Positions 32,749 to 47,408 of a DNA stretch of 64,000 nt are shown here, in pieces (the stretch's first letter is position 1; every line of letters begins with the position of its first letter). The notes beneath the pieces are model-generated. The model saw only the letters and a list, made by a program, of their open reading frames with translations, had not been told where the DNA came from and ran no database searches. Source of the stretch: Elusimicrobiota bacterium (GTDB lineage Bacteria; Elusimicrobiota; Elusimicrobia; UBA1565; UBA9628); the NCBI GenBank assembly GCA_023249645.1, contig JAHFCF010000004.1, forward strand, positions 821 to 64,820, written 5' to 3'. Made by a program: the position numbers and the translations under genes.

Positions 32749-32790
32749 GACTGTGTCCGGACATAGTCGCAACTCTTCGCGCGAAGAGTT
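32749..32790. repeat. Two adjacent GC-rich hairpins (20-bp near-palindrome + 20-bp perfect palindrome) between convergent acnA and cNMP-binding gene; candidate bidirectional terminator/REP-like element
   Basis: GACTgTGTCCGGACAtAGTC (32749-32768, 1 mismatch) and AACTCTTCGCGCGAAGAGTT (32771-32790, perfect). Confidence 0.35.
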
Positions 32791-32894
32791 CGTGGATAAC
32801 TTCTCGTTGGGAGCGATTCTGTCTTGAATAGGAAAGGGGGACGCGCGGCTTTCACTATCAGCTGGAGGTGAAACCGGGCGGCGTAGAACGGTGG

Positions 32895-33356
32895 TCAGAC
32901 TTTCCCGCAGATCCCCAGCAGTTGGAGCAGGGTCTCCTCGAGGCGCTGGGACATGATCAAAGAGAAGCGCTTGTGGAACTCATAGCCGAGAGTAGGATCC
33001 TTCTCGAACTTGCCGCGCAGGCATTTTCCGTCGAAGGAGAGGGCCAAGACCGTGTCCATGGCGCGCGCGGCCATGTGCCAGCGGTAGGGGGGGATGATCC
33101 AGGACCAGCCCAGGATCTCATTGACCCCCAGCGTCTGCACGATGACGTCGCGCGCCGCTGTCGGGATCTCCACGGCGACTTGTCCCTGCCGGATGAGATA
33201 GAAGCGGTCCGCGTTCTCGCCTTCCCGGAAAAGGAACTGGCCCGCGGAGAAGCGCGCGTTGGCCGCGCAGCCTGCCAAGAGCTCGAGGTAGGGTTCCTGG
33301 AGGCCCTTGAAGAAAGCCTGATTTTCAAGAACGCTCTTGAGGCTCTTCTTTTCCAA
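32895..33356 (-). CDS. Cyclic nucleotide-binding domain protein (no DNA-binding domain)
   Basis: 153 aa with cNMP-binding fold features (FLFREGENADRFYLIRQGQV), lacks C-terminal HTH. Confidence 0.7.
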   Translation of the reverse strand: MEKKSLKSVLENQAFFKGLQEPYLELLAGCAANARFSAGQFLFREGENADRFYLIRQGQVAVEIPTAARDVIVQTLGVNEILGWSWIIPPYRWHMAARAMDTVLALSFDGKCLRGKFEKDPTLGYEFHKRFSLIMSQRLEETLLQLLGICGKV

Positions 33357-33360
33357 GACG

Positions 33361-33744
33361 CTATTTCGCCGCGGCTACCTTTTTGTGGCAGTTCATGCAC
33401 TTGCTCACCGCGAAGATCTTCTTGTCTTTATCGATAGGCGAGGTCTTCACTCCATCGTGACAGAAGGCACAGAGCTTGCCGTCTTTCATGTCCTTCATCT
33501 TGAAACCGGCTTCACTGCGCTTCTGCGCAAAAAGAGGCTCCTTGCCTTCGTGGCATGCCGGGCAGCCTGATCGGTCGCCGTGGCTTTTATGTTGAAAAGT
33601 GACTGGCGCCATCTTGCCGACCTTGTCGAACACGATCTCTACCGGCGCCTTGGCCTTATCATCTGCGGCCAGGATCGGCTTCCCCACGAGGCAGCTTGCA
33701 GCCACCAAGACGACCATCACCAGATAAGAAGACATTCTTCGCAT
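33361..33744 (-). CDS. Periplasmic triheme cytochrome c7/c3-family (PpcA-like)
   Basis: Signal peptide then ~85-aa mature domain with CPACH, CAFCH, CMNCH and Lys-rich spacing typical of cytochrome c7. Confidence 0.8.
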   Translation of the reverse strand: MRRMSSYLVMVVLVAASCLVGKPILAADDKAKAPVEIVFDKVGKMAPVTFQHKSHGDRSGCPACHEGKEPLFAQKRSEAGFKMKDMKDGKLCAFCHDGVKTSPIDKDKKIFAVSKCMNCHKKVAAAK

Positions 33745-33767
33745 ACGAAGCCCTCCCTTACAGTAAT

Positions 33768-34850
33768 TTATACGCCGCACGGTGCAGCCACACGGGGTGC
33801 CGGCTCGCGGGACAGGATCTCGCAGAACTCGCCGGTCAGCGTTTCGGTGATCGCTTCCGCGGCCTGGATCTCTCCCTTGCGCTTGGCGAGGGTCTCGGCG
33901 ATGACGGCCTCAAGATGGTCGATGTTGTAGAGATGCACGCCTGGGATCTGCGCCGCTTCCGGGTCCACATTGCGGGGAACGCCCAGATCGATGACCAAGA
34001 GCGGTCGGCCCTGGCGGGTCTTGACCAGACCGGCGAGGCGTTCCTTGGTGACGAGATAGTGCGGGCAAGAGGTGGAGGCGATGATGACGTCCATCTCGCC
34101 GATGGCCGCCATGCCTTCCTCGAGACTGACGGCCTGCGCGCCGTATTGAGCGGCCAGGATCTGGCCCCTGCCGGAGTCGCGGTTGGCGATGGTAAGTCGC
34201 GTGCCCTTGCGCTCCAAGAGATGTTGGGCCGCGGTCTCCGCCATCTTGCCGGCGCCTACCAGAAGGATGCGGTGCTGGGTCGTGTCCGATGACAGGATCT
34301 TCTCGGCCATGGCCACGGCCGCGCCTCCGCAGCTGCAGATGCCTTGGGCGATTCCTGTCTGCGAGCGGACGTTCTTGCCCGCGGCGAAGGCGGCCTGGAA
34401 GAGCTTGTTGAGAAGCTTGTCCGTGTGGCGCGCTTGATGAGCCTGCTGGTAGGCGGTCTTTGTCTGCCCCAGGATCTGATGCTCTCCGACCACGATGGAA
34501 TCGAGTCCGGAAGACACCCGGAAGAGGTGCTGGACAGCAACCCGGCCGCGCCGGCTGAAGATGTGTCCAGCGCTTTCGGGACAGCGCTGGATGAAGAAGG
34601 CGCGCAGGAGGCTCTCGGCGACGTTGGCGTCTTTGGCGCTGGCGTAGCACTCCAGGCGGTTGCAGGTGGAGACTATGACCAAGCCGGCTAAGGAGCCTGC
34701 TTGGCGTAGCTGCTGGAGGACGGAGGGTAGCTGCTCTGGGGAAATGGAGAGGCGCTCTCGGACTTCCACCTTCGCCTCGCGGTGGCTCAGACCCACCAGG
34801 ACCAGATCGGACCAGGCGCTCAGCGGGCCCGACACGGATTCGGAGGCCAT
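33768..34850 (-). CDS. hemA: Glutamyl-tRNA reductase
   Basis: LVGLSHREAKVEVRERL, STCNRLECY active-site Cys, Rossmann GAGKMAE; 360 aa. Confidence 0.93.
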   Translation of the reverse strand: MASESVSGPLSAWSDLVLVGLSHREAKVEVRERLSISPEQLPSVLQQLRQAGSLAGLVIVSTCNRLECYASAKDANVAESLLRAFFIQRCPESAGHIFSRRGRVAVQHLFRVSSGLDSIVVGEHQILGQTKTAYQQAHQARHTDKLLNKLFQAAFAAGKNVRSQTGIAQGICSCGGAAVAMAEKILSSDTTQHRILLVGAGKMAETAAQHLLERKGTRLTIANRDSGRGQILAAQYGAQAVSLEEGMAAIGEMDVIIASTSCPHYLVTKERLAGLVKTRQGRPLLVIDLGVPRNVDPEAAQIPGVHLYNIDHLEAVIAETLAKRKGEIQAAEAITETLTGEFCEILSREPAPRVAAPCGV

Positions 34851-34871
34851 AAAAGGATTATACCATTTCCC

Positions 34872-36806
34872 TCAGAATTTGACATTGACGCCGGCATTGA
34901 CGACGCTGGCCCGGCCGCTGTTGCTCGAGTCGAACTTGTCGACCCAGTTGTCGATGCGGTAGCCGGCTCGTGCCGAGAGATGTTTGTACTTGGGCGGGGT
35001 GTACTCGACGGTCACGCTGCCGCGCGCGATGCGGATGTCGCGGGGCGTGTAGTCGCCGACGGCGCCCACGGTCGAAGCCCAGTGCATCGGCGTCTCTTCC
35101 TTTGACCAAGTATAGGAGCCGTTGCCCAGGACCACGAAGCCCATGGGGAGATTGATACGGCCATGTCCTCCGACCACGGTGTTTTTTTGGCGGTTGGACA
35201 TACCTCCCTCATGCCAGGCAATAGGGCTGGTCTGGGCCGCGACCAGGGTCGCTGCCGCGTTCCCAATGAAGCCGTTGGTGAAATAGCGGATGGTTTCATA
35301 AGAGGTGTCGGCTCCCACGCAGACCTTGTTGGTGGCCGCCCAATTCAAGCTGGCCCTGTAATCGTTGCGGCTCTCGGCATGGTTCCAGGGCATCTGGCTG
35401 CCCGTCCCGTCCATGTATTCCGTCGCGAGCACCATATCCACGCGCTGGGGGAGTGGCACCGTGATGGTCAGGCTGGCATCATTCTGCCGGTTGTTTTGAT
35501 TGCCGAAAGACGAATGGTTGGCTTGAAGGCGTTTGTAATCGGCATCAGCCTCGATCCCGAAGGGAAGCTCGGCTTTCGCGCCCACTCTGAAATTATGCCG
35601 CACATCGCTGTGGGCGGTCTGAGTGTTCTGTCCATTGGGCAGGACCAGGGTGCCGTCAGAGTAATACCCCACGGTTCCTTCGTTATAATCCCCATGGTCA
35701 CGGCGGTTGTCTATCTCTATCTTATAGGCCGCCGTCAGACGGACTGCTTCCACGGGTCTGTAGTTGGCGTTAAAGTCGCCCTTGAGGTTCGTCTTGTCCA
35801 TCTGGCTGCCATTGCCCTTGTTGCCGATAGGGCTGACGTAGCCGCTGTTCTCCTCGACTTGATAGGCGTTCAGATAGAGCTTCCCGGAGAGAGAAAGGTT
35901 CTGGCGGGCTTTGTAGGCCGCGTTGAGGGCTCCGACGATGGTGTTCCTCTTGTACCCGTTGCTCAGGTTTTCCCGCTGGCGGCCTGTCAAGGCCCCGGTC
36001 AGGCCCAGGTCCTTGCCCATATCCTGGCGGAATTTCAGTTCCGCGCCGGTCATCTGCTGCGCCCCAAAAATGGGTTTGAGCGTACTGTTGATGGCGTGGG
36101 TGTCTTTGGAAGTGTTGGAGTCATCTTTGAATTCGCTGTGCACGATGTCGAGGCTCACGGCGCCGTATTCATTGATGTTGGTCCCCAGGCCGATGATTAC
36201 GTCTCTCTTTGTATTGTTGACGTTGGCGGAGCCGAGCGTCGCGGTGCCTGAGGCGGTGCCCGGAGCCCTGGCCGCCATCGATCCGAATTTTTCCACGGTC
36301 CAGAACTCGGCGGATAACCACTGGGCTGCGTTCTCGGGATTGAGGAGGATCAGGTCGATGTCTGATTCCGTGCGCCGGACGACAAACTCCGTCGTGGTCG
36401 CGATATCCACGGTGGTGAAGTGGGTGGTCGGCTGCCAGGCTCCTTTGAGGATGATCCCGGTCCGGGCGTAGTCCTGGCGGTGGTGCATCGTGTCCACTTT
36501 CGCGCTGATCCTCAGGTTGTCTTGGTAGTCAGCGTTTAAAACACCGTTTTCTTCCGTGCTTCCGATATCCTTAAGCGAGAAATCAAAGAGTCCCTGCTTG
36601 CCCTGATTGGCGAGCTTGACGTCGCCGTGCATGTCTCGATAGAGCTTTCCGTCATATTCCTGGACACGGCCCCGGCTCTGTTCGAAGTCCAGATGAACAA
36701 AGCGCATGGCCACGGCATTGTCCGTGGCGGCAGCCGCATCTTCCTCGGCGCGTGCGGACCAGGCGCCGGCGCCCATCAGCAGGCCGATCAATAGGAATCG
36801 TGTCAT
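34872..36806 (-). CDS. Large outer-membrane beta-barrel protein, candidate MtrB/MtoB/PioB-type porin partner of the upstream decaheme cytochrome
   Basis: Signal peptide (MTRFLLIGLLMGAGAWSARA), ~640 aa of Gly/Asn/Tyr-rich alternating sequence, C-terminal ...VNVKF; immediately downstream of decaheme gene on the same strand. Confidence 0.5.
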   Translation of the reverse strand: MTRFLLIGLLMGAGAWSARAEEDAAAATDNAVAMRFVHLDFEQSRGRVQEYDGKLYRDMHGDVKLANQGKQGLFDFSLKDIGSTEENGVLNADYQDNLRISAKVDTMHHRQDYARTGIILKGAWQPTTHFTTVDIATTTEFVVRRTESDIDLILLNPENAAQWLSAEFWTVEKFGSMAARAPGTASGTATLGSANVNNTKRDVIIGLGTNINEYGAVSLDIVHSEFKDDSNTSKDTHAINSTLKPIFGAQQMTGAELKFRQDMGKDLGLTGALTGRQRENLSNGYKRNTIVGALNAAYKARQNLSLSGKLYLNAYQVEENSGYVSPIGNKGNGSQMDKTNLKGDFNANYRPVEAVRLTAAYKIEIDNRRDHGDYNEGTVGYYSDGTLVLPNGQNTQTAHSDVRHNFRVGAKAELPFGIEADADYKRLQANHSSFGNQNNRQNDASLTITVPLPQRVDMVLATEYMDGTGSQMPWNHAESRNDYRASLNWAATNKVCVGADTSYETIRYFTNGFIGNAAATLVAAQTSPIAWHEGGMSNRQKNTVVGGHGRINLPMGFVVLGNGSYTWSKEETPMHWASTVGAVGDYTPRDIRIARGSVTVEYTPPKYKHLSARAGYRIDNWVDKFDSSNSGRASVVNAGVNVKF

Positions 36807-36828
36807 GGCATTATCCTCGCTGTGTCCT

Positions 36829-37695
36829 TTAGTTTTTAAACGTCGACGACCTGTCAGAGCCATGGATCTCGAAATGGCAGTCCGTGCAGCGGACCTTCCC
36901 CGTGACGCGCGCCATGCTCGTCTGCGAATGTTCCTTCAGGTGGCAGCCCAAGCACAAGGCCGGCATGGCCTGCTTGAGGAGCCGGTCGTTGACCGAGCCA
37001 TGGACGGCATGGCAGTTGGTGCAACTGTCAGAAACCGGCGCATGCTCGAAAGCGAACGGGCCGACCTTCTCTGAATGGCACTTGGCGCAGAGCTCTATCA
37101 AGGAGTCGGCCTTGAGGTTGCCCTCGACGCCGCCGTGCGGGTTGTGGCAGGAGGTGCAGGTCATCTTCCCTTCCAAAACGGGATGGTGGGAGGGCAGGTT
37201 CATGTCGGTCTTCTGCCGGGTGTGGCACTTGAGGCAGGTCTCGGTCTCGCCTTTGACGAGCGAATAGCGGCCCTCGCCGTTGTGCACGCTGTGACACTTC
37301 AGGCAGTTGACGCCGTTCTGGTTGTGGGCGCCTGTCTTCCACATCATGAGGGCCTTGGTCTCTTTGTGGCAGTCGAGGCAGAACTCGGCGCCCTCCGAGG
37401 TCGTGAGCTTGTTGGGATTGCGGATCGTGGCGTAGCCGGGATTATCCTTGTCTCCGGCCGCGGCCGCGTGCAGAGAGCCCGCGCCGTGGCAGGATTCGCA
37501 TCCGTCCTTGAGCTTCTTGGCGGAGAGGGACTTGCGACCGTGGAAAGTCTTGGCGAAGTTTTCCGCGACTTCGCTGTGGCAGTTGGCGCAGACCTCCGCG
37601 CCCACCTTGGCGGCGGTTTCCGCGGCACGCGGCTGTCGCGCGATGAGGAGCGCGCAGGCCGCGGCGAGGATGAACGAAATTGTTGGAGTCCGCAT
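36829..37695 (-). CDS. Periplasmic decaheme c-type cytochrome, MtrA/MtoA/PioA-like
   Basis: Signal peptide + 10 CxxCH in ~290 aa (CANCH, CESCH, CLDCH, CLKCH, CLKCH, CTSCH, CAKCH, CTNCH, CLGCH, CTDCH). Confidence 0.8.
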   Translation of the reverse strand: MRTPTISFILAAACALLIARQPRAAETAAKVGAEVCANCHSEVAENFAKTFHGRKSLSAKKLKDGCESCHGAGSLHAAAAGDKDNPGYATIRNPNKLTTSEGAEFCLDCHKETKALMMWKTGAHNQNGVNCLKCHSVHNGEGRYSLVKGETETCLKCHTRQKTDMNLPSHHPVLEGKMTCTSCHNPHGGVEGNLKADSLIELCAKCHSEKVGPFAFEHAPVSDSCTNCHAVHGSVNDRLLKQAMPALCLGCHLKEHSQTSMARVTGKVRCTDCHFEIHGSDRSSTFKN

Positions 37696-37808
37696 TTTTG
37701 ATGTCCTCCGTAATTTATGATGAAACATTAAGATTAGTATGACAAAAAGGTCATTTTTTCACAATGACGGACATTATGGAAAAAGGATGACGTTCGCCGG
37801 TTAAATCA

Positions 37809-38564
37809 TCAAGGAACGACTTGATTTTCCGCAAGGACGAAATTGGCGATCCCATCCTGCAGATCGTGAGGACAAGTCGCTTGGCGCAGATGGGGTTCGT
37901 CCAGAAGACGTCCCTGGGAGCCCTCGATCTCGATGAAGCCTTTGTCTCGGAACTCGGCCAGGGCGCGGCTCACACCCTCCGGAGTCGTCCCCACGATCTG
38001 GGCCAGTTCCGTGCGCGTCTCCTTGAGGATGAATTTTTTGCCGCCGAGAGCCTGGCTGGCCCGGAGCAGGATCGCCGCCAGGCGCGCGTTGACCGAGCAG
38101 ACCGTGAGGCAGTGCATCTGCTCCTCGGCGCGTCCGAGTTCCCGCGCAAATCTCTGGAGAAGGAGCCGCAGCATCTCTTGGTCCTGCCCGAAGATGGTCC
38201 AAAAATGATTTTTTTCCAGGAAGCAGATGGTGGAGTCTTCCATCGCCTGCCCCGTGCAGGCATAGAGCCTGTCGGCGAAGAATGAGCGGTCTCCGAGAAG
38301 ATTCGGGGCGTCCACGATGCGCACGATCTGGCTGCGTCCGCTCGGGCTTTCCTTGAAGAGCTTGATGCGGCCACGGCAGATGAAATACACCCCTGTCGGC
38401 CGGTTGCCCTGGTAGAAGAGGATATTGCCCTTGCGGTAGGTGTTGGCCGTCATGAACTGCTGACCGCGCTTCCAGGCTTGCGCGGACACATGCTCAAAGA
38501 ATGGAAGACGACGGATGGGGCAGGAACGCCCCAGGTGGCTGCAGCAGTCTTTTTTATCCGGCAT
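37809..38564 (-). CDS. Crp/Fnr-family transcriptional regulator with N-terminal Cys cluster (Fnr-like)
   Basis: N-terminal DCCSHLGRSCP, cNMP-binding-like core, C-terminal HTH (TRTELAQIVGTTPEGVSRAL). Confidence 0.8.
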   Translation of the reverse strand: MPDKKDCCSHLGRSCPIRRLPFFEHVSAQAWKRGQQFMTANTYRKGNILFYQGNRPTGVYFICRGRIKLFKESPSGRSQIVRIVDAPNLLGDRSFFADRLYACTGQAMEDSTICFLEKNHFWTIFGQDQEMLRLLLQRFARELGRAEEQMHCLTVCSVNARLAAILLRASQALGGKKFILKETRTELAQIVGTTPEGVSRALAEFRDKGFIEIEGSQGRLLDEPHLRQATCPHDLQDGIANFVLAENQVVP

Positions 38565-39324
38565 AGGAGTGCAGGCCGCTCATGAGGTAGTTGACGCCGA
38601 AATAGGTGAAGAGGACGAAGGCGAAGCCGGCGACGGAGAACCAAGCCATGCTCCGGCCCTGCCAGCGGTGGGTGCGGCGCAGGTGGATGGCCGCGGTGTA
38701 GACGATCCAGGTGATGAGCGACCAAGTCTCCTTGGGGTCCCAGGACCAATAGGAGCCCCAGGCCTCGTTGGCCCAGACCGCTCCCAGGATGATGCCCGCG
38801 GTCAGCAGAAGATAGCCCAGCCCCATGGCCCGCTCGTTGAAGCGGTCCAGGGCTTGGTCCGTGTCGGTCGTGAGGTAAACGGCGGAGGCCAAAAAGGACA
38901 AGGCCAGGGCGGCGTAGGCCAGCATGATGACGCTCACGTGCAGGAGCAGCCAGTTGGAGCGCAGGGCCGGCACCAGCGGCGCGACCGTCGAATCCAGCAA
39001 GGCGCACAGTCCAAGCAAGGCCAGGCTCAGAGCGCTGATCGCCGGTCCCAGCCAGTCTCCGGGGGCCAGGCGATGGAAGCAGAAGGCCAGAGCCGTGATG
39101 CCCCACGACATGCTGACCAGCGACTCGAATTGATTCGCCAAAGGAACGTGGCCTGAAGCGCGCCAGCGATACATAAGGAAGAGTGTCTGCAGCAGCCAGG
39201 CCGCCGCCAGAGCCGCGTGGCCTGTCCGCCGCAAGCCGGGCTTCGCGAACATATAACCCGCCGCATAGAGGATCAGAGCCGCTAGGTAGAAGGCGAAGGA
39301 GAGATTGAGGAAGGTCGCGTTCAT
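38554..39324 (-). CDS. ccsA: Cytochrome c-type biogenesis protein CcsA (system II heme handling)
   Basis: WGSYWSWDPKETW WWD-domain motif, polytopic; internal Met MNATFLN chosen as start; ATGA overlap with ccsB stop. Confidence 0.9.
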   Translation of the reverse strand: MNATFLNLSFAFYLAALILYAAGYMFAKPGLRRTGHAALAAAWLLQTLFLMYRWRASGHVPLANQFESLVSMSWGITALAFCFHRLAPGDWLGPAISALSLALLGLCALLDSTVAPLVPALRSNWLLLHVSVIMLAYAALALSFLASAVYLTTDTDQALDRFNERAMGLGYLLLTAGIILGAVWANEAWGSYWSWDPKETWSLITWIVYTAAIHLRRTHRWQGRSMAWFSVAGFAFVLFTYFGVNYLMSGLHSYAG

Positions 39325-40352
39325 TTTTTCCTCCGGAGGAATGTCCACGTCAGTCCGACGGTGAGGAGAAGAAATCCGGCATAGACCAGCGGCACGCCAG
39401 GGTCCCGGCTGACCAGGAGGCTGGAATACTGGGGATTCTCGGGATCGTAGCCGGCTTGATAAAGGGTGTAGCCTCCCCAGCGCAGGGGCTGGTTGACCTC
39501 GATGGCGCGCCGCACGGCGACCCATCCGCCCTGGATGATGGCGACCTGGCTGTGGAACTGCTTGATCTTCCCGAAGGCGGGTTCGTAGGAGACTTGATAG
39601 CGGCTCTTGGCTTCTCCGTGGAAGTCAGGGAATCGGGCGAAGGCCCAGTGTTTTTCAGAGCCTTCACGGTCCGTGATCTCCAGGTGCAGGGCGGGATTCT
39701 GGGGCGCTGAGGAGCGCGTGGCCGGACCCTGGTTGTCGATGATGAAATCAGGGAAGTACTCTAAGACTTTGATCTGGATGGCTCCGGCGCGCAGCAGCGC
39801 CGTGGCGCCCGGCTGGACGTCGAACTTCTCGCTCCAACCCTCACGGCGGCTGGTCACGGTGAGGCTGTGCAGGCCGGAGTCATAGTACTCGATGCCGAAG
39901 TCCTCGAGCTTGACGGAGAAAGGCAGCCGGAAGCCCTGGGGGCCCTCGGTCATGTTCTTGCTTTCGCCCACGCTCAGGGGGAGGCTCCCGTGCAGGCCCA
40001 GGATCGCGCTGAGCATCCCTCCGATGAGGATCGTCAAGACCGCCAGGTGGGTCAAGAGCACGTCGAGGCGCAATCGCACACCGCGCGTAAGGAGAACGCC
40101 GTCGCGCGGTGCCTGGCCCTTTCCATACAGCCAGGCATGGATCTGGCGCTGCCAGGTGCAGAGGGTCAGGTTGATCCCCAAGAGGCCCAGGAGAGCCGTG
40201 AAGAGGAGGGAATGGTAGATGTCTATTTTGGGGAGCAGGGTCCCTGCCACGCAGAGGAGGAGCAAGGCGAGCAGGAGTCCATAAAGGAAGGGGGGTGAAG
40301 CCAGAAAGTCCAAGGCTTTGGAGACAGTGCCTTCCTTATTGTGATGGGTCAT
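39321..40352 (-). CDS. ccsB: Cytochrome c biogenesis protein CcsB/ResB (system II)
   Basis: 343 aa, N-terminal TM helices, large periplasmic domain, C-terminal TM; partnered with ccsA. Confidence 0.85.
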   Translation of the reverse strand: MTHHNKEGTVSKALDFLASPPFLYGLLLALLLLCVAGTLLPKIDIYHSLLFTALLGLLGINLTLCTWQRQIHAWLYGKGQAPRDGVLLTRGVRLRLDVLLTHLAVLTILIGGMLSAILGLHGSLPLSVGESKNMTEGPQGFRLPFSVKLEDFGIEYYDSGLHSLTVTSRREGWSEKFDVQPGATALLRAGAIQIKVLEYFPDFIIDNQGPATRSSAPQNPALHLEITDREGSEKHWAFARFPDFHGEAKSRYQVSYEPAFGKIKQFHSQVAIIQGGWVAVRRAIEVNQPLRWGGYTLYQAGYDPENPQYSSLLVSRDPGVPLVYAGFLLLTVGLTWTFLRRKK

Positions 40353-42195
40353 GTCGTTTCTGGTGTTCTAGCCGGGTCTTGCCGGTTATCCAGGCCCAGC
40401 TCATGGGGTAGACTTCGGGGTCGAAGATGGTCCAGTAGAGGTGCCAGACCAGGATGGCCAGGCAGGCGAGGACAGCTTCCATGAAGTGGATCAGCAGGCA
40501 TAGATCGATGAACCATTTGGACAGGAACCTCAGCGACAGCTCACGCCACCAGGCCACGCCGCCGGTGACAATCATGATGCCGCTGCCCCACATCAGGGCC
40601 CAGTATTCGGCCTTCTCGATGTAGTTGAAGCGGTCGAATTTTGGCGGGCCGCCGCGATGTAAGAGATTGTACCGCTGCAGTTGCAGAAAGTCCAGGAAGT
40701 CGCGCCAGCGCGGAGAGAGGGCCTTGAGCTCTCGGCGTCCTTCCGGGGTGGCCGTGAGCCAGTAGAGGTGATAGGCGCCCAACGTGAGGAAGATCACGGC
40801 GAAGAGGCGGTGCAGGAAGGCGCGCTGAGCCGCGCCCGCGGCGCCATGGAAGACAGCCTGAGCCCAGAAGGCTTCTGGGTATGTATGGCAGAATCCCGTG
40901 TAGGCCAGTCCGATGAACGAGACGAGAAGGATGAGATGCTGTATCCGCTCATTGCGGCTCATCCGCAGTTCCTTGGGATCGTGCGCGTGATCGGGGCCGA
41001 GGAGGAGTTTGCGCTTGTGGTCCAGAAAATTATGGAGGAGCATGCCGCCGATGGTCGCCAGGATGAGCCAGATGTAGATCTTGCGGACGGTCTGAAGCAC
41101 CGTCTCGCGGATGTCGCGCGAGGTCGTGGAGAAGGTCATGTGGACCTTCCCCAGATGGACCAGCTCTCCGGCGCGGCTGTGGCAGGCGCCGCAGGTTTTC
41201 TGGAGGTTCGCGGGATTGACCGATGAATCGGGGTCCGAGGAGGGCAGGATGTCATGATAGCGGTGGCAGGAGGCGCAGTTGGCTGAGGCCAGGTTGCCGG
41301 CCACGAAGGCTACTCCGTGGTAGCTGTCCAGGTAGGTCCGGGCGGGGTCGAGGGGCATGCCAAATTTGGCGATGAGCAGTTCCGAGCCGTGGCAGGCGCT
41401 GCAGGTCTTGACGATGGAGCCGGTGTAGACCATGGAACCGGGCTCCTTGTGGGCCGTGATGTTGTGCTCTCCGTGGCAATTCGTGCAGACCGGCGCGTCC
41501 TTGACCCCGGATGCGGACTTCACCCCGTGGATGGAGCGTGAATAAGCAGCCAGAGCTTTCGGGTGGCAGCGGCCGCAGGTTTGGGGGATGTTGAACTTGT
41601 AGGCGCGGCTTCGGGAGTTGTTGGAGAAGTTGAGATCATGCGCGCCGTGGCAGTCGATGCAGACCGCGGCCTTGGAATCTTGGTGTTCCAGCATGGCTTT
41701 CCCATGCACGCTCGCCGTGTAGGTGGAGAAAGGCTCTAGGCCGAACTTCCCTTTGAAGTCGAGCTTCTGGTGACAGCGGTTGCAGGTCATCGGGATGCGG
41801 GAGCGGGAGACCGGAGAGGATGGACCGGAGGTGCGGCTCATTTCATGAGGCGGGCCATGACAGGCGGCGCAGAGGGCGGCGCCCTTGTGGGTTTTTGCTA
41901 AGAGCTTGCCGTGGTCCGAGGAGTGGAGGACTTGCGATATTTTTTGGTGGCAGGCCTCGCAGGAGACCGGCGGTGCCTTGGGATCGTGGGGGACTTCCTC
42001 CTTGCCGGCGTGGCAGGAACTGCAGCCCAGGTCCTTGTGCACTGACTTTTGGAAGCGGGCCGCGTGTATCTGGGGCGCGCCGCTGGCGCGATCGGCATGG
42101 CAGGCCAGGCAGGACGCGTCATCTCCGGCCCATGCCGTGGTCGCGGCCCAGAGCATCCAGGCCACGGCGGAGCAGAACCGCGCCGGGGTCCTCAT
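40336..42195 (-). CDS. Fusion of an 11-heme periplasmic cytochrome c domain with a C-terminal HydC/FdnI-like di-heme cytochrome b membrane domain (CbcL-like quinol oxidoreductase)
   Basis: Signal peptide (MRTPARFCSAVAWMLWAATTAWA), 11 CxxCH, then 4-5 TM helices with conserved His (Ni/Fe-hydrogenase b-type cytochrome subunit-like); ATGA overlap with upstream regulator gene. Confidence 0.8.
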   Translation of the reverse strand: MRTPARFCSAVAWMLWAATTAWAGDDASCLACHADRASGAPQIHAARFQKSVHKDLGCSSCHAGKEEVPHDPKAPPVSCEACHQKISQVLHSSDHGKLLAKTHKGAALCAACHGPPHEMSRTSGPSSPVSRSRIPMTCNRCHQKLDFKGKFGLEPFSTYTASVHGKAMLEHQDSKAAVCIDCHGAHDLNFSNNSRSRAYKFNIPQTCGRCHPKALAAYSRSIHGVKSASGVKDAPVCTNCHGEHNITAHKEPGSMVYTGSIVKTCSACHGSELLIAKFGMPLDPARTYLDSYHGVAFVAGNLASANCASCHRYHDILPSSDPDSSVNPANLQKTCGACHSRAGELVHLGKVHMTFSTTSRDIRETVLQTVRKIYIWLILATIGGMLLHNFLDHKRKLLLGPDHAHDPKELRMSRNERIQHLILLVSFIGLAYTGFCHTYPEAFWAQAVFHGAAGAAQRAFLHRLFAVIFLTLGAYHLYWLTATPEGRRELKALSPRWRDFLDFLQLQRYNLLHRGGPPKFDRFNYIEKAEYWALMWGSGIMIVTGGVAWWRELSLRFLSKWFIDLCLLIHFMEAVLACLAILVWHLYWTIFDPEVYPMSWAWITGKTRLEHQKRHDPSQ

Positions 42196-42944
42196 TGGGG
42201 AGACTGTTCGAGGGAGATGTTTTCGAGGGCGGTCCGGTTGCGGACTTCGATGGCCTTTCCCGTGAGACGGATGAGGCCCCGGTTCTGGAAAGAGGAGAGG
42301 GTGCGGATCACGGTCTCCGGAGAGAGTCCGAGATTCTCCGCGATGTCCCGACGGCTGTAATGGAAATGGCCATGGCAAGGCAGGGCGGCCGCCGGCGCGG
42401 GCGGGGTGCGCAGCGAGATGAGGAAGTTCGCCAACCGGGCTTCGGCCGAGCGAAAGGCGAAACTAAAGACCCGGTCCATGCTCTGGCACATGTAGCGGCT
42501 GACCCGGCGCAGGAGCCGTTTGGGAAGCTCCGGCTCATGGGAGGCTAGGTAGTCCACGAGTTCGCGCGGCAGGAAGCAGACCACGGATTCGCGCATGGTT
42601 TCCGCCGAGGCGCAATAGGACTGTATGCCCAGGAAAGGAGCCTCGCCCACCAGGTCGCCGCAGGAGTGATACATGAGCGTCAGTTCGCGTCCGCGCTGGT
42701 CGGATTTGGTGATCTTGACGTCGCCGACGCAGAGGATGAAGATGCCTTGGGGCGTCTCGCCCTCCTGAAAGATGAACTGATGGGTCTTGTAGCGTCGCAT
42801 TTGGCGTTGGGTCCGGAAGTGTTTCATGGATTCGGGCGACAGAAAGTTGAAGAAGCAGCGCTTGCGGCAGTCGCAGTCGCGGCAATGCTCGGCCGGCTGG
42901 AAGGGACAGGACAGGGGAGATGTGGGGGTTCTTTTGTATCCCAT
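42192..42944 (-). CDS. Crp/Fnr-family transcriptional regulator with N-terminal Cys cluster (Fnr-like), paralog 2
   Basis: N-terminal CPFQPAEHCRDCDCRKRC, cNMP-binding-like core, C-terminal HTH (SRRDIAENLGLSPETVIRTL); stop overlaps start of CbcL-like gene. Confidence 0.8.
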   Translation of the reverse strand: MGYKRTPTSPLSCPFQPAEHCRDCDCRKRCFFNFLSPESMKHFRTQRQMRRYKTHQFIFQEGETPQGIFILCVGDVKITKSDQRGRELTLMYHSCGDLVGEAPFLGIQSYCASAETMRESVVCFLPRELVDYLASHEPELPKRLLRRVSRYMCQSMDRVFSFAFRSAEARLANFLISLRTPPAPAAALPCHGHFHYSRRDIAENLGLSPETVIRTLSSFQNRGLIRLTGKAIEVRNRTALENISLEQSPQ

Positions 42945-42969
42945 GCGGTCGCAATGATCCTTAATCAGA

Positions 42970-43842
42970 TTACAATATTTTTATGAGGTGGCGCAGGAAG
43001 GCGTTCGTGGCTTTGTCGTTGCGGTGCGCCTTGCGCACCAGGACTCCCAGGGGCCGGGACAGCTTCTGGTCGGCGAAGCGGCGCAGGCAGAGGCGATGGT
43101 CGTCGGCCACGGTCGGTTCAGGGACGATGGAGACGCCCATGCCGCTGGAGACCGCGCTTTTGATGGTCTCGATGTTGTCGAGCTCCAGGCGGAGCTTGGG
43201 GTGCGCGCCTTTTTTGCGAAGGATCCGGTCGATGGCCTTGCGCGTGGGCGTGCCGCGGTCGAAGGCGATGAAGTCGACTCCCGAGAGATCGCTCAGATTC
43301 AGCTCCGCCCGGCGGGCCAGGGGATGGCTGCGGGGCAGGATGAGGACGAGCTCTTCATCGCCGAGGGAGATGATCTCCAGATTCCGGCGCTTGACGGGAT
43401 AGGCCATGATGCTCAGGTCGCAGTGTCCGCGCAGGATGTCGTCGCAGATGCGGCTGGCCTTCTGGTAGTCGACCTCCACCTTGACCTCGGGATGGCTCTT
43501 GAGGAAATCCCGCAGGTAGCGCTGCAGGACATAGGGGCCCACGCTGTAGATGGCCGCGATGCGCAGCTTCTGCGCGGAGTCGGGCGCGATGGATCGCATG
43601 CGGGCGGTCATCTTCTCGTAGTCGGCCACCAGGCGTTTGGCCGTGCGGAAGAAGATCTTTCCGGCGGGGGTGAGCTTCAGATGCCGGCTGGTCCGGTCCA
43701 GGAGCGGACGGCCGAGGGACCTCTCGAGGTTCTTGAGCTGCTGGCTGACCGCGGACTGGGTGAGATAATTGAGCTGCGCCGCTTTGGAGAATGTCCCGGT
43801 CTCGATGAGATCACGGAAGATGCGCAGGCTTTCCAGATGCAT
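42970..43842 (-). CDS. LysR-family transcriptional regulator
   Basis: N-terminal HTH (LRIFRDLIETGTFSKAAQLNYLTQSAVSQQLKNLE) + substrate-binding domain; divergent from hdrC. Confidence 0.85.
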   Translation of the reverse strand: MHLESLRIFRDLIETGTFSKAAQLNYLTQSAVSQQLKNLERSLGRPLLDRTSRHLKLTPAGKIFFRTAKRLVADYEKMTARMRSIAPDSAQKLRIAAIYSVGPYVLQRYLRDFLKSHPEVKVEVDYQKASRICDDILRGHCDLSIMAYPVKRRNLEIISLGDEELVLILPRSHPLARRAELNLSDLSGVDFIAFDRGTPTRKAIDRILRKKGAHPKLRLELDNIETIKSAVSSGMGVSIVPEPTVADDHRLCLRRFADQKLSRPLGVLVRKAHRNDKATNAFLRHLIKIL

Positions 43843-43956
43843 GCAGGACAGTATACTAAAACTATTAGAAAGCCTTATAGAGGCATAAGGAGAAATCGTT
43901 AACGGCCGCAGGTGAGCGCATGATATGATGGACGCGACGCTGAGGAGGATCCTTCC

Positions 43957-44550
43957 ATGGCCCTGGAACAGACGATCAAATACGAGGCGGAGCGCGACAG
44001 GGATTTCGCCCGATGGGTGATGGACCAGAGCGGCGGAGACAACCTGCGGCACTGCATCCAGTGCGGGATCTGCAGCGCCACCTGTCCGTTATCCTTGTAT
44101 ATGGACTACACCCCGCGCCGTCTCATCAACCTGGCTCGGGAGGGCTTCAAGCAGGAGGTCTTAAGCTCGTTTACGATCTGGCTGTGCGCCAGCTGCTATG
44201 CCTGCCGGGTGGAGTGCCCCAAGAAGATCCAGGTGACGGACATCATGTACGCCTTGAAGCGCCGGGCCATCCAGGATGGCGTCTATCCGCGGCGCTTCCC
44301 CATCCCGGTGCTGGCGCGCGAGTTCGGGCGCATGATCTTCCTCTTCGGCCGCGTGAGCGAGACCCTGCTCGTCATCGACCTCTTCTTGCGCACCAGCTGG
44401 TTCAAGTTCCTGAGCATGACCGGCCTGGGCATGGACCTGCTGCGGACCGGCCGCATGTCGTTCCTTCCGGAGCGCATCCAGCGCCGCGCCGAGCTGCGCC
44501 AGGTCCTCGATGCTCTGGATGCCGAGGAGAAGAAGGAGGCGTCCCGATGA
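43957..44550 (+). CDS. hdrC: Heterodisulfide reductase subunit C-like (2x[4Fe-4S])
   Basis: CIQCGICSATCP and CASCYACRVECP ferredoxin motifs, 197 aa. Confidence 0.85.
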   Translation: MALEQTIKYEAERDRDFARWVMDQSGGDNLRHCIQCGICSATCPLSLYMDYTPRRLINLAREGFKQEVLSSFTIWLCASCYACRVECPKKIQVTDIMYALKRRAIQDGVYPRRFPIPVLAREFGRMIFLFGRVSETLLVIDLFLRTSWFKFLSMTGLGMDLLRTGRMSFLPERIQRRAELRQVLDALDAEEKKEASR

Positions 44551-45407
44551 GATATCTCTATTTTCCGGGCTGTTCTTTGAAGGGCACGGGCAGAGCCTAT
44601 GAAGAATCCCTGCTGGCGGTGTTCGGGGCCTTGGGCGTCGAACTCCAGGAGATCGACGATTGGAACTGCTGCGGCGCCACGGCCTACATGTCCGTGGACG
44701 AGACCAAGTCTTATGCCCTGGCCGGCCGCAACCTGGCATTGGCCGAGCGCGAGGACCTCGATGTGATCGCGCCTTGCAGCGCCTGCTACCTGGTCCTCAA
44801 TAAGACCCAGAAAGGACTCGCCGAGCACCCCGAGCTTCATCGCAAGGTGGTCAAGGCTCTGAAAGCCGGCGGGTTGGACTACAAGGGAACGGTCAGGGTC
44901 CGGCATCCTCTCGATGTTCTGGTCAATGACGTGGGCTTGGACAAGATCGCCGCGCTGATCAAGAACCCGATGAAGGGACATCGGTTCGCGACCTATTACG
45001 GCTGCCAGATCGTGCGGCCCTATGCGACTTTCGACGATCAGGACGATCCCATGACCATGGAGAAACTTCTCAAGGCTGCGGGCGCCGAATGCGTGAGTTA
45101 TCCCTTGAAGACCCGCTGCTGCGGCGGCAGCCTCACGGGGACGCTCCCCGAAGTGGGGCTGCGGCTGGCCTACATCCTCATTAAGGAAGCCAAGAAGCGC
45201 GGAGCCGAGGCGATCGTCACGGTCTGTCCGCTCTGCCAGTTCAATCTGGACGGCACCCAGGGACAGATCGCCAAGAAGTATGAGCGGGTCGATCTGCCCA
45301 TCGTCTATTTCACCCAGATCCTGGGGTTGGCTATGGGGATCTCCGCTTCAGAGCTGGGTCTCACGCGCGGGATCATCCCCGCCCAAGCCGTCCTGGCCGG
45401 GAGGTAA
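44547..45407 (+). CDS. hdrB: Heterodisulfide reductase subunit B-like (CCG domains)
   Basis: MRYLYFPGCSL..., two Cys-rich CCG-type domains (CCG, CPLCQFN); ATGA overlap with hdrC. Confidence 0.85.
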   Translation: MRYLYFPGCSLKGTGRAYEESLLAVFGALGVELQEIDDWNCCGATAYMSVDETKSYALAGRNLALAEREDLDVIAPCSACYLVLNKTQKGLAEHPELHRKVVKALKAGGLDYKGTVRVRHPLDVLVNDVGLDKIAALIKNPMKGHRFATYYGCQIVRPYATFDDQDDPMTMEKLLKAAGAECVSYPLKTRCCGGSLTGTLPEVGLRLAYILIKEAKKRGAEAIVTVCPLCQFNLDGTQGQIAKKYERVDLPIVYFTQILGLAMGISASELGLTRGIIPAQAVLAGR

Positions 45408-45410
45408 GCC

Positions 45411-47408
45411 ATGGAACATCCCCAAGAGAAGAACGGTCGGCCCCGCATCGGTTTCTACATCTGCCATTGCGGCTCCAACATCGCCAGCATGATCGACGTG
45501 GCTGAGGTCCAGCAATACATCGCCGCGCTCCCTGGCGTGAAAGTATCGCGCGATTACAAATATATGTGCTCGGATCCGGGCCAGGAGATGATCGCCCAGG
45601 ACATCCGCGAGCACAAGCTCGAACGCCTTGTCGTGGCCGCCTGCTCGCCGAACCTGCATGAGGAGACCTTCCGCAAGGCCGCGGTCAAGGGCGGTCTCAA
45701 TGCTTTCTATTTCCAGATGGTCAACATCCGCGAGCACGCCGCCTGGGTACACACGGATAGGAGATCCGCGACGGAAAAAACCAAGGATCTGGCCCGCGCC
45801 GCGGTCTATCGGGTGCACTTTCACAAGGCGCTCGAAAAGCGGCAGGTTCCGGTCAGCCCTGAGGTGCTTGTGGTGGGGGGAGGGATCGCCGGCATCCACG
45901 CGGCCCTGACCCTGGCCAACGCGGGCAAGAAGGTGACCTTGGTCGAGCGCGAGGCCACCATCGGCGGACACATGGCGATGTTCGACAAGACCTTCCCGAC
46001 TTTGGACTGCGCGGCCTGCATCCTCACGCCTAAGATGTCGGCGGTCAAGTCGCATCCAAACATCACGCTCTGGACCTATTCCGAGGTGGTCCAGGTGGAA
46101 GGATATGTCGGCAACTACAAGGTCACGGTCAAGCGAAAGCCGCGCTATATCAAGGAAGACCTCTGCGTCGGATGCATGGAGTGCATCGACGCCTGCGTGT
46201 TCAAGGAACCGAAGTTCTCCGACAAGTTCAACCAGGGCCTGGGCAAGCGCAAGCCCATCTACATCGACTTCCCACAGGCCACTCCCAAGGTCGTGCTGAT
46301 CGATCCGCAGACCTGCATCCAGTTCAAGACCGGCAAGTGCAAGAAGACCTGTGTTGAGTCATGCGACCGCGAGGCCATCGACTTTGCTCAGAAGGAGGAG
46401 ATGCGGGAGCTCCAGGTCGGCGCCATCGTGCTGGCCACGGGCTTTAAGACTTTCGACGCCAAGCGCGAGCCGCATTACGGCTACGGCCGCTACCCCGGCG
46501 TCTTCACGGCGCTCGAGATCGAGCGGCTGGTCAACGCCTCGGGCCCTACGGCCGGTGAGGTTGTTGGCAGAGATGGGAAGCACCCTCGGGCCGTGGGGAT
46601 CATCCACTGCGTGGGCTCGCGCGACGAGAAGACGAACAAGTGGTGCTCGCGGGTCTGCTGCATGTACTCCTTGAAGCTCGCGCACCTCATCCAGGAGCAT
46701 TCCGGCGCCGAGGTCTACAACTTCTACATCGACATGCGCGCGCCAGGCAAGGCTTATGAGGAATTCTACGACAAGCTCCTTGCCGAGGGCGTCCATTTCG
46801 TGCGCGGCCGCGTGGCCGAGGTCACGGACTGGGCCATGACTCCTGAAGAGGAGGGCCGACTCGTCCTGCGCGTGGAAGACACCTTGGCCGGCTTCGTGCG
46901 CCGCATCCCGGTCGACATGGTGGTCCTCTCCACGGGCCTCGAGCCCCAGGCGGACGCCCAGGCGGTCCGCCGTTGCTTCAACATCGGCTGCGGCAGCGAG
47001 GGCTTCTTTCAGGAGCGTCATCCCAAGCTCGCCCCGGTCAATACCTTCACGGACGGCATCTTCATCGCGGGCGCTTGCCAGGCGCCCAAGGACATCCCGG
47101 ACACCGTGGCCCAGGCCGGGGCCGCGGCGGCCGAGGCTCTGGTCCTCATCGATTCAGGCCATGTGGAGCTCGAGCCCAACACCTCGTACGTGGTGGAGGA
47201 GGAGTGCAGCGGCTGCAAATCCTGCGTGCCGCTGTGTCCCTACACCGCCATCTCCTTCGATGGGGAGAAGAAGAAGGCCATGATCAACGAGGTGCTCTGC
47301 AAGGGCTGCGGGGTCTGTGTCGCGGCCTGCCCGTCAGGCTCGATCAGGCAGAATCTGTTCGATGACGATGAGATCTTCAGCGAGATCGAGGGGGTCATGG
47401 CGAAATGA
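45411..47408 (+). CDS. hdrA: Heterodisulfide reductase subunit A (FAD, multiple FeS)
   Basis: 665 aa, VVGGGIAGIHAAL FAD motif, multiple CxxCxxCxxxCP clusters, N-terminal CHCGSN. Confidence 0.9.
   Translation: MEHPQEKNGRPRIGFYICHCGSNIASMIDVAEVQQYIAALPGVKVSRDYKYMCSDPGQEMIAQDIREHKLERLVVAACSPNLHEETFRKAAVKGGLNAFYFQMVNIREHAAWVHTDRRSATEKTKDLARAAVYRVHFHKALEKRQVPVSPEVLVVGGGIAGIHAALTLANAGKKVTLVEREATIGGHMAMFDKTFPTLDCAACILTPKMSAVKSHPNITLWTYSEVVQVEGYVGNYKVTVKRKPRYIKEDLCVGCMECIDACVFKEPKFSDKFNQGLGKRKPIYIDFPQATPKVVLIDPQTCIQFKTGKCKKTCVESCDREAIDFAQKEEMRELQVGAIVLATGFKTFDAKREPHYGYGRYPGVFTALEIERLVNASGPTAGEVVGRDGKHPRAVGIIHCVGSRDEKTNKWCSRVCCMYSLKLAHLIQEHSGAEVYNFYIDMRAPGKAYEEFYDKLLAEGVHFVRGRVAEVTDWAMTPEEEGRLVLRVEDTLAGFVRRIPVDMVVLSTGLEPQADAQAVRRCFNIGCGSEGFFQERHPKLAPVNTFTDGIFIAGACQAPKDIPDTVAQAGAAAAEALVLIDSGHVELEPNTSYVVEEECSGCKSCVPLCPYTAISFDGEKKKAMINEVLCKGCGVCVAACPSGSIRQNLFDDDEIFSEIEGVMAK

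Follow-up and report, generated by a model that had tools for sequence, protein, structure and literature searches.

We analysed a 64,000-nucleotide stretch of DNA from an Elusimicrobiota bacterium (assembly GCA_023249645.1, contig JAHFCF010000004.1; hereafter the window), in which one minus-strand gene joins a multiheme cytochrome c domain to a membrane-embedded cytochrome b domain. This heme-c/heme-b fusion gene is real and has the architecture of CbcL. Judged by its sequence, the protein is a member of the broad CbcL/MtoC/MtrH family, outside the Geobacter CbcL orthologous group, and its features are best explained if it acts as an inner-membrane quinol:periplasmic-cytochrome oxidoreductase of that family. 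We also consider it probable that the whole string of genes around it encodes a conduit of the Mto/Mtr type, leading from the quinone pool to the outer membrane. The gene is located as follows.

40336..42195, minus strand: CbcL/MtoC/MtrH-family cytochrome gene; 619 amino acids (aa), start ATG at 42195, stop TAA at 40336.

The open reading frame (ORF) thus encodes 619 aa rather than the 620 first reported, and the N-terminus of its product, MRTPARFCSAVAWMLWAATTAWA/GDD, is by inspection of the Sec signal peptide type. The predicted N-terminus is in line with 34 aligned homologs, the initial methionine being conserved in at least 90% of the sequences. A longer ORF of 680 aa, starting at TTG 42378, was rejected because the homologs begin at the ATG and the signal peptide starts there. 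Exactly 11 CxxCH motifs were found, starting at residues 29, 58, 79, 109, 138, 179, 207, 237, 265, 307 and 335, and a motif count detected no CxxxCH or CxxxxCH variants in the 619-aa protein; the signal peptide and the eleven motifs are both as the original prediction had them. Pfam places multiheme c families across the first ~340 residues. In an alignment of 35 sequences, in which the homologs are 42-69% identical to the window protein, all 11 CxxCH motifs and 11 further histidines of the c domain are invariant, which is the expected pattern for eleven bis-His c hemes. A PDB sequence search with the whole cytochrome returned only a marginal multiheme match. The same single c/b ORF, with identical sequence, is present in two independently made assemblies, and c-heme families and PF01292 are combined in nearly all of the 120 best homologs. 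A sequencing or assembly artefact behind the fusion can therefore be ruled out, and the separate c-heme and b-heme ORFs that would have undone the initial proposal were seen in neither assembly.

The C-terminal part belongs, by its Pfam match, to the HydC/FdnI family (PF01292, Ni_hydr_CYTB, residues 412-593; 49.5 bits against a cut-off of 30.1). Hydropathy and an AlphaFold model give five transmembrane (TM) helices, namely, one linker helix and four more, and the loop charges agree with the FdnI topology, the linker helix bringing the chain back to the cytoplasm. A profile of the C-terminal 220 residues matches E. coli FdnI (1kqf_C) with an E-value of 1.5e-8. Exactly four histidines of the membrane part, H420, H462, H570 and H585, are invariant in the 35-sequence alignment, and the profile alignment places them on FdnI H18, H57, H155 and H169, the axial ligands of hemes bC and bP in the Fdn-N structure. 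The AlphaFold model has a mean predicted local distance difference test (pLDDT) score of 79, rising above 90 in a large part of the membrane domain; among PDB folds it is again closest to 1kqf_C (probability 1.00, TM score 0.68 normalised to FdnI), with HyaC, the cytochrome b of hydrogenase-1, in second place. The di-heme cytochrome b domain of four to five TM helices that had been predicted is thus supported by the family match, the helix count and the fold, and the suggested alignment with FdnI finds the four His ligands intact. The most conserved motif of the family, (N/S)YIEK-x-EYW, is invariant, precedes TM3 and is aligned with FdnI residues 110-118, the profile match placing YIEK at 109-114. 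In the Fdn-N structure, these residues presumably line a menaquinone pocket on the cytoplasmic side, which also binds 2-heptyl-4-hydroxyquinoline N-oxide (HQNO). By analogy, the region of the YIEK motif would form a cytoplasmic-side quinone pocket. The window protein and FdnI (1KQF chain C) therefore share the four-helix di-heme b fold, the four axial His in register and the loop motif before TM3, but FdnI is a separate subunit fed by an iron-sulfur (FeS) subunit, whereas the donor or acceptor of the b domain here is an 11-heme c domain fused to it through an extra TM helix.

The CbcL/MtoC/MtrH family was defined by Zhong and Shi in 2018 (PMC6295460) as spanning 15 phyla, 3-23 CxxCH motifs and identities of 28.6-100%; it includes two Elusimicrobia and three Omnitrophica proteins, and its genes are often clustered with mtrAB or mtoAB. 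Most members have six TM helices and a few have four or five, with conserved histidines in the membrane part (PMC6295460). In the window protein we found an exported multiheme c domain, a fused HydC/FdnI-like b domain, the conserved TM histidines and homology to the family. It has five TM helices instead of the six of most members, its chain ending 34 aa after H585, which does not exclude it, since five-TM members are listed (PMC6295460). By tblastn, it matches a 9-heme CbcL-clade gene (locus L088) in both domains, with 25% identity over 477 aa (E=9e-27) and 32% over 96 aa (E=9e-11), this gene being a proxy for CbcL that is metagenomic, frameshifted and recognised through a fragment of the supplementary alignment of PMC9129911 poorly read by optical character recognition (OCR). 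In locus L088, part of a long contig, frameshifts that probably stem from long-read errors leave the CbcL-clade gene (3600-7524) in five or more called ORFs; directly after it comes a 482-aa NapC/NirT-type (ImcH-like) gene, and ATP synthase genes lie upstream. The CbcL-like architecture of the original prediction is upheld by the fusion, the intact His ligands and this two-domain homology. On the other hand, the Desulfuromonadales CbcL group is characterised by nine CxxCH, a periplasmic domain of ~250 aa and at least 57.6% identity, whereas the window protein has 11 CxxCH, ~335 aa and 25-32% identity to the CbcL-clade proxy. That group is further characterised by its role as a menaquinol oxidase, required to reduce extracellular acceptors of low potential (below -0.1 V).

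The contrast first drawn between 11 hemes here and nine in CbcL is no distinction, as 11 is the norm of the clade (exactly 11 CxxCH in 110 of the 120 best homologs) within a family spanning 3-23. More than 5,000 proteins match the window cytochrome at E<1e-5, and scanning one genome from each species confirmed at least 597 relatives, of which many come from peat and groundwater. We kept the best 80 of these relatives' loci for comparison, and the neighbourhood counts given below are over 85 related loci. The best 80 come from Elusimicrobiota, Omnitrophota, Kiritimatiellales, Verrucomicrobiota, Latescibacterota, KSB1, one Gemmatimonas metagenome-assembled genome (MAG) and, chiefly, peat and soil Acidobacteriaceae. 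For the cytochrome, and likewise for the porin described below, the closest relatives that carry a name are Elusimicrobiota MAGs, and the window sequence has no match in a plasmid collection.

Compared with GSU0274 CbcL, which has 619 aa, 9 CxxCH and 6 TM (Table S2 of PMC6295460), the window protein has the same length, a signal peptide, a periplasmic bis-His multiheme c domain and a C-terminal HydC/FdnI-type di-heme b domain in one polypeptide, and likewise lacks FeS, flavin and molybdenum subunits. It differs in its 11 CxxCH, in the length of its periplasmic domain (~335 versus ~250 aa), in having five TM helices without the extra C-terminal one, and in belonging to another phylum. Fnr-type regulator genes and ccsBA flank its gene and mtrAB-like genes come after it, unlike the stand-alone Geobacter cbcL, which is reported to be constitutively expressed. 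MtoC and MtrH (Daro_1404 of Dechloromonas aromatica, Galf_2006 of Gallionella, Rfer_4073 of Rhodoferax ferrireducens) belong to the same fusion family and are clustered with an MtrA/MtoA-type decaheme and an MtrB/MtoB-type porin (PMC6295460), the equivalents of which lie at 37695-34872 in the window. However, they have 655-673 aa, 9 CxxCH and 6 TM (Table S2 of PMC6295460), and their clusters carry mtoD or cymA, in place of which the window has genes for a c7 triheme, ccsBA, hemA and Crp/Fnr proteins. Since an MtrA/MtrB-type pair follows in the gene string, the closest functional analogue appears to be MtoC/MtrH rather than Geobacter CbcL. An Omnitrophica WOR_2 protein, OGX07562.1 (649 aa, 11 CxxCH, 6 TM; Table S2 of PMC6295460), also of candidate-phylum origin, has nearly the same CxxCH spacing (26/21/30/28/45/28/30/25/30/28, versus 29/21/30/29/41/28/30/28/42/28 here), but carries an extra C-terminal TM helix. 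A larger paralog of the fusion, which the window lacks, lies directly upstream of the ~620-aa gene in loci L004 (5276-8026), L007 (5132-7876), L008 (6963-8780) and L009 (51-1856); it has 916 aa in L004 and 914 aa in L007, with 29-32% identity, and is probably the form with ~20 CxxCH given for Elusimicrobia in Table S2 of Zhong and Shi.

The cytochrome gene lies in the middle of a string of 11 minus-strand genes running from 43842 to 32895. The other features of the string are listed below in the order of transcription.

42970..43842, minus strand: LysR-family regulator, 290 aa (PF00126 and PF03466); first gene, divergent from hdrC.
42192..42944, minus strand: crp1, Fnr-type Crp/Fnr regulator, 250 aa (PF00027 and PF13545).
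39321..40352, minus strand: ccsB/resB, system II cytochrome c biogenesis, 343 aa (PF05140, E=1.3e-34).
38554..39324, minus strand: ccsA/resC-type heme handling protein, 256 aa (PF01578, E=1e-49; TIGR03144, 239.5 bits against a cut-off of 187.6).
37809..38564, minus strand: crp2, Crp/Fnr-family regulator, 251 aa from the first ATG (PF00027 and PF13545).
37696..37808, minus strand: 113-nucleotide (nt) intergenic region between crp2 and the decaheme gene, with candidate control sites.
36829..37695, minus strand: MtrA/DmsE-family periplasmic decaheme cytochrome, 288 aa, 10 CxxCH (TIGR03508, 233.3 bits against a cut-off of 192.2).
34872..36806, minus strand: MtrB-fold outer-membrane beta-barrel porin, 644 aa (by AlphaFold and Foldseek).
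33768..34850, minus strand: hemA, glutamyl-tRNA reductase, the first step of heme synthesis, 360 aa (PF05201 and PF01488).
33361..33744, minus strand: c7-type triheme periplasmic cytochrome, 127 aa, three CxxCH (PF14522, E=5e-10).
32895..33356, minus strand: cyclic nucleotide monophosphate (cNMP)-binding-domain protein without a helix-turn-helix (HTH) domain, 153 aa (PF00027 only); last gene.

With gaps in nt given in brackets and overlaps as negative values, the order is lysR (25) crp1 (-4) cytochrome (-17) ccsB (-4) ccsA (-11) crp2 (113) decaheme (22) porin (21) hemA (23) c7 triheme (4) cNMP-binding protein. The overlaps at the crp1/cytochrome, cytochrome/ccsB and ccsB/ccsA junctions, on which the proposed operon had been built, are all present in the sequence; the proposal, however, missed lysR upstream and the decaheme, porin, hemA, c7 and cNMP-binding genes downstream. 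The crp1 stop and the cytochrome start share a 4-nt ATGA at 42195-42192 (CCCCAATGAGG). The 17-nt overlap of the cytochrome gene with ccsB has counterparts of 17 and 20 nt called in the orthologous loci L003 and L004, where the ResB N-terminus (M-T-x-x-N-K) is also similar; on these two grounds we rejected another possible ccsB start, a GTG, with which there would be no overlap. The ccsB and ccsA genes share a 4-nt ATGA with GGAGG ahead of it. The second Fnr-like paralog, first placed just downstream, is indeed present and overlaps ccsA by 11 nt when its first ATG is used. Two gene calls differ in giving crp2 a 251-aa or a 214-aa start, and we favour the longer, overlapping one because of its N-terminal cysteines. 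A palindrome, CTTATGCCTCTATAAG, lies in the region upstream of lysR. We found no convincing terminator on the coding strand of the string, in a scan that gave no more sites than shuffled sequence and is thus uninformative, and no Rfam RNA family over 32500-44200.

System II is represented by a ResB/CcsB-type protein and a CcsA/ResC-type protein bearing a WWD-type motif (WGSYWSWDPKETW), encoded together. Related loci have ccsBA near the cytochrome gene in 12 cases from three phyla, often with hemA, and no further ccs genes were seen in the examined parts of the 64-kb window. Lying beside the housekeeping gene hemA, ccsBA may be the general system II of the organism, and its placement fits a general heme/cytochrome neighbourhood as well as the dedicated pair that had been proposed. 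One Elusimicrobiota relative, at 70% identity, preserves the order cytochrome-resB-ccsA-decaheme-porin-hemA-c7-cNMP, and another, at 66%, does so up to the contig end, whereas more distant relatives have the same parts in shuffled order. Conservation of the operon, which had been put forward as a check, thus holds for the cytochrome-ccs-mtrAB-hemA order in Elusimicrobiota relatives and fails for the crp1 stop/start overlap, which is found in this genome alone.

The assignment of the conduit rests on the two genes that follow the 113-nt gap. The AlphaFold model of the porin, built from 34 homologs, is an all-beta barrel (pLDDT 78.6), and its top Foldseek match in the PDB is 6r2q_B (E=1.1e-19; TM score 0.71, versus 0.48 for the next match), a chain of the 'Structure of the Mtr complex' from Shewanella that we take to be MtrB. 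The PF11854 (MtrB_PioB) match is just below threshold (21.7 versus 23 bits, E=8.7e-5), and the family is listed for the L004 ortholog. As in Shewanella MtrAB (PDB 6R2Q) and in MtoAB/PioAB, a decaheme of the DmsE/MtrA family is encoded beside a beta-barrel of ~650 aa. However, the window porin is only 13% identical to MtrB and, unlike Shewanella Mtr, has no MtrC-like partner: the 11-gene string contains no MtrC/OmcA-type extracellular decaheme, a feature of Mtr-type systems that is absent from Mto and Pio. Only 46 sequence relatives of the porin were detectable in a collection of 5.8 billion proteins; those with a named source are all from Elusimicrobia/Elusimicrobiota, and most are unnamed, which suggests a phylum-specific, highly diverged MtrB lineage. 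We detected mtrA-like genes near the cytochrome gene in 22 of the 85 related loci, a lower bound, as tblastn at 25-40% identity under-detects divergent mtrA and mtrB. Beyond the 2018 survey, the papers listed in literature searches held nothing specific on Elusimicrobia or Elusimicrobiota with extracellular electron transfer, MtrA or MtoA.

The regulators of the string resemble FNR to different extents. The iron-sulfur cluster of E. coli FNR is bound by Cys20, Cys23, Cys29 and Cys122. In crp1, Cys21-x2-Cys24-x5-Cys30 and Cys123 have the same spacing and are conserved in three orthologs, those of L003 and L004 among them; together with the cNMP-binding and Crp HTH domains, this bears out the Fnr-like nature first assigned to crp1. 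The Fnr model PRK11161 gives 88.8 bits for crp1 (residues 18-244) and 48.6 bits for crp2, both below the 228-bit cut-off. Since the score is far below this curated cut-off, we regard crp1 as convincingly Fnr-like by sequence, that is, as a putative Fnr-type regulator and not an FNR ortholog. The crp2 product, 25% identical to that of crp1, has Cys7, Cys8, Cys15 and Cys114 in a spacing unlike that of FNR, but retains the E--SR recognition helix (as EGVSR), where crp1 has ETVIR. A further difference from E. coli FNR is the candidate box, ATGAC-N4-GTCAT rather than TTGAT-N4-ATCAA.

Co-oriented Crp/Fnr genes lie near the cytochrome gene in 27 of the 85 related loci, upstream of it in 21. In Acidobacteriaceae the typical arrangement is a tandem Crp pair upstream of the cbcL-like gene, and in the pairs that were aligned the second member is a Cys-bearing sensor domain of 163-170 aa without an HTH. 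Such members (~170 aa, an N-terminal C-x2-C-x7-C and a cNMP-type domain) are found in L018 (8233-8745), L019 (8152-8685), L033 (4601-5110) and L024 (4007-4486); the window string likewise ends in an HTH-less cNMP-domain protein (32895-33356, 153 aa), which has no Cys motif.

In L003, L004 and L006, the genes for crp, the cbcL-like and the mtrA-like proteins are preceded by a 14-bp palindrome of FNR geometry, ATGAC-N4-(G/A)TCAT, with a 4.6-fold enrichment in upstream windows. Allowing at most one mismatch, the window contains 16 such boxes against 4.3 expected, a number reached by none of 100 shuffles. The three that match ATGAC-N4-RTCAT exactly (24934-24947, 11641-11654 and 7383-7396) are all intergenic and lie upstream of a 13-heme NapC/NirT-type cytochrome gene, the ORF at 11743 and a Rieske/cytochrome b/9-heme operon, respectively. 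Within the string, the 113-nt gap before the decaheme gene holds an FNR-like box, ATAATGTCCGTCAT, at 37777-37764, a perfect palindrome ATGAC-N6-GTCAT at 37754-37739, a sigma-70-like promoter TTGTCA-17-CATCAT at 37745-37717 and GGAGG before the mtrA start. That a Crp/Fnr regulon of respiratory cytochromes operates through the candidate box is a reasonable inference from these sequences.

The NapC/NirT-type (PF03264) cytochrome at 23217-24863 (minus strand) has 548 aa and 13 CxxCH, with the perfect palindrome ATGACATTTGTCAT ~70 nt upstream. Homologs 48-60% identical to it adjoin the cbcL-like gene in L004, L005, L007, L008 and L009, and a 511-aa NapC/NirT multiheme gene follows the cbcL-like gene in the acidobacterial L018 and L033; the 548-aa protein could be an ImcH-like partner. 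At 7383-10201 (plus strand), the box ATGACAAAAATCAT lies ~90 nt upstream of a Rieske gene, followed by cytochrome b (7911-8969) and a 9-heme cytochrome (8915-10201), and the Omnitrophota locus L006 has the same Rieske/cytochrome b/multiheme order ahead of its cbcL-like gene. At 11641-13092 (plus strand), two FNR-like boxes (11641-11654 and 11663-11676) precede a 449-aa ORF without a Pfam match.

Taken as a conduit from the quinone pool to the outer membrane, the string would work as follows. As in FdnI, the b domain would meet the quinone pool at a site on the cytoplasmic side, where electrons are exchanged, menaquinol being oxidised near the cytoplasmic b heme. Electrons would then cross the membrane through hemes bC (H420/H585) and bP (H462/H570) and follow the chain of 11 c hemes. 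From there they would reach the MtrA-type decaheme inside the MtrB-type barrel, either directly or with the c7 triheme in between, the end acceptor being extracellular, for example Fe(III), Mn(IV) or humics. Flow through this wire could also be inward. The products of ccsB, ccsA and hemA would supply and attach the hemes, 24 for the cytochrome, the decaheme and the c7 protein, and the two Fnr-type regulators would probably give a response to oxygen or redox state via the candidate ATGAC-N4-GTCAT boxes. In support of such a path, the purified c domain of CbcL is all bis-His and reduces PpcA, a c7 triheme (PMC9129911). With a quinol site on the cytoplasmic side, outward flow would be non-electrogenic or would consume proton motive force, as argued for CbcL, where such a site has been invoked to explain the low energy yield (bioRxiv 10.1101/2022.08.31.506072).

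Several points weigh against this scheme. The role of the 11-heme clade is read from sequence and analogy for all of its members, and FdnI is the sole model for which quinone is used and on which side the quinol site lies; identity to the CbcL clade is just 25-32%, and the gene that stands for it is frameshifted and was recognised by OCR. Co-transcription and translational coupling are likewise inferred from gene geometry alone. The box before mtrA is imperfect, with one mismatch to ATGAC-N4-RTCAT and two to the strict palindrome, and at up to two mismatches no FNR-like box was found in the intergenic stretches upstream of lysR or crp1. The cluster has no MtrC-like cytochrome, its arrangement being as close to the Mto/Pio clusters of Fe(II) oxidation as to reducing clusters. 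Many relatives do not have the cytochrome gene beside mtrAB, and its neighbours in the Omnitrophota locus L006 are genes for a bc complex and of the sulfite/nitrite reductase type; the cytochrome family may feed several periplasmic pathways.

Some of these points bear on the direction of flow. If the protein were an MtoC-type quinone reductase, electrons given up outside the cell by Fe(II), reduced humics, a mineral, a cathode or a partner cell would pass through MtrAB and c7 to the quinone pool, and with a cytoplasmic-side quinone site cytoplasmic protons would be taken up as in Fdn-N. The pairing of MtrA and MtrB without an MtrC-like surface cytochrome, as in mtoAB and pioAB clusters (PMC6295460), speaks for inward flow; the structural template FdnI works inward, and the family includes MtoC itself, with no sequence feature that separates its oxidising from its reducing members (PMC6295460). 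Even so, no hallmark of Fe(II) oxidisers, such as Cyc2 or MtoD, was seen within the stretches examined, and the neighbouring genes for an Hdr/Mvh-type hydrogenase, the tricarboxylic acid cycle and phosphoenolpyruvate carboxykinase give no direction. Transfer from Fe(II) to menaquinone is thermodynamically uphill. We consider inward flow rather unlikely, and outward flow is somewhat favoured over it.

The other functional alternative dispenses with the conduit. Here the cytochrome would be a general distributor from quinol to the periplasm, serving soluble reductases or other multihemes, and its position beside mtrAB, ccsBA and hemA would reflect a mere heme/cytochrome neighbourhood. Such a role would suit the neighbours of the L006 gene, namely, a Rieske/cytochrome b complex, other multiheme cytochromes and a NIR_SIR reductase, as well as the presence in the window of several other respiratory cytochrome operons with the same FNR-like box and the housekeeping character of hemA. 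No mtrA-like gene was detected nearby in 63 of the 85 related loci, but the complementary count of 22 is, as noted, a minimum. Moreover, the closest relatives keep the cbcL-like gene together with the mtrAB-like genes, and the linkage crosses phyla, an acidobacterial locus having an MtrA-like decaheme gene and a 790-aa ORF without Pfam match just upstream. On balance this distributor role seems to us very unlikely, and an Mto/Mtr-type conduit remains the reading that we prefer.

The overlap of crp1 with the cytochrome gene had been singled out as an unusual coupling of a regulator to its probable target. The overlap is indeed unique to this genome in comparison with the 85 related loci, but the association with a regulator is not, being found in the 27 loci noted above, and its significance was overstated. 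In the 21 related loci with a co-oriented upstream crp gene, the gaps, from tblastn coordinates, are all at least 125 nt. In L003, the orthologous regulator gene ends three codons earlier and is followed by a 91-nt spacer with a box (CATGACGGGAATCAT) and a -10-like TATAGT, a spacer that is gone in the window. Comparison of these sequences indicates that the overlap is a lineage-specific compaction, that is, a derived loss of the spacer, and not a feature of the system. No Shine-Dalgarno (SD) sequence or AU-rich leader was found before the cytochrome ATG, whereas the ccsA and decaheme genes have GGAGG, and no promoter-like site was found in crp1 near the junction. Translation of the cytochrome by re-initiation after crp1 is therefore plausible.

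Alternatively, the overlap might have no functional meaning: a promoter within crp1 or lysR would drive the cytochrome gene, its translation would be independent, and the genes would simply be packed tightly. Four-nt overlaps are the commonest class between co-directional bacterial genes, and this one is restricted to a single genome among 87 loci. The L003 ortholog, with its own spacer, box and TATAGT, also lacks an SD before the cytochrome start, so the cytochrome gene can initiate without one. Set against this are the missing promoter-like site and leader just described, and the four overlaps in succession (-4, -17, -4 and -11), which argue for a single translated unit. We therefore hold mere packing to be possible but doubtful. 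Coupling, if true, would tie the amount of a respiratory protein to that of its regulator, which is mildly odd and of small pay-off.

Elsewhere in the window, an alternative-complex-III-like cluster occupies 13876-23216 (plus strand), with genes for a 6-heme cytochrome, a 1016-aa molybdopterin-fold/FeS protein, an NrfD-type membrane protein and a 782-aa protein with seven class-I cytochrome c domains, besides further ORFs. A 536-aa protein encoded at 10020-11630 (plus strand) has both ankyrin repeats and a caspase (Peptidase_C14) domain, which is an unusual combination in bacteria. Divergent from lysR, at 43957-50408 (plus strand), lies an HdrCBA-like set followed by FlpD/MvhD-, small- and large-subunit-type [NiFe] hydrogenase genes, with hypA beyond; the set looks like an Mvh/Hdr-type electron-bifurcating module.

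The CbcL/MtoC/MtrH family, including an 11-heme member, is known already, and the window protein is a fairly ordinary, well-documented example of it. What is new here is modest: the 11-heme clade, so far uncharacterised, is broad, and it recurs together with Fnr-type sensors and an FNR-like box. A wider reading, which we put forward tentatively and with more doubt than confidence, is that the clade represents a conserved oxygen- or redox-gated module that joins the quinone pool with the cell surface and is separate from the CbcL and MtoC clades of Proteobacteria. It would recur together with one or two Fnr-type sensor genes, some without a DNA-binding domain, a NapC/NirT-type multiheme cytochrome of ~500-550 aa and an MtrAB-type conduit, and would occur widely among uncultured Elusimicrobiota, Omnitrophota, peat Acidobacteriota and Verrucomicrobiota. 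In the present genome the sensor gene would be translationally fused into the operon, and regulator and target would be made in fixed proportion. Experiments on inner-membrane gateways for extracellular electron transfer have been confined to a few Proteobacteria and Desulfuromonadales. The locus described here is a clean and complete example from a lineage of the candidate-phylum type, with regulator, bc cytochrome, heme attachment, conduit, heme synthesis and periplasmic shuttle on one strand, and offers a compact gene set for heterologous testing. If our reading is true, Fnr-controlled respiration of minerals or humics, or electron uptake, would be far wider outside the model groups than surveys of iron genes suggest.

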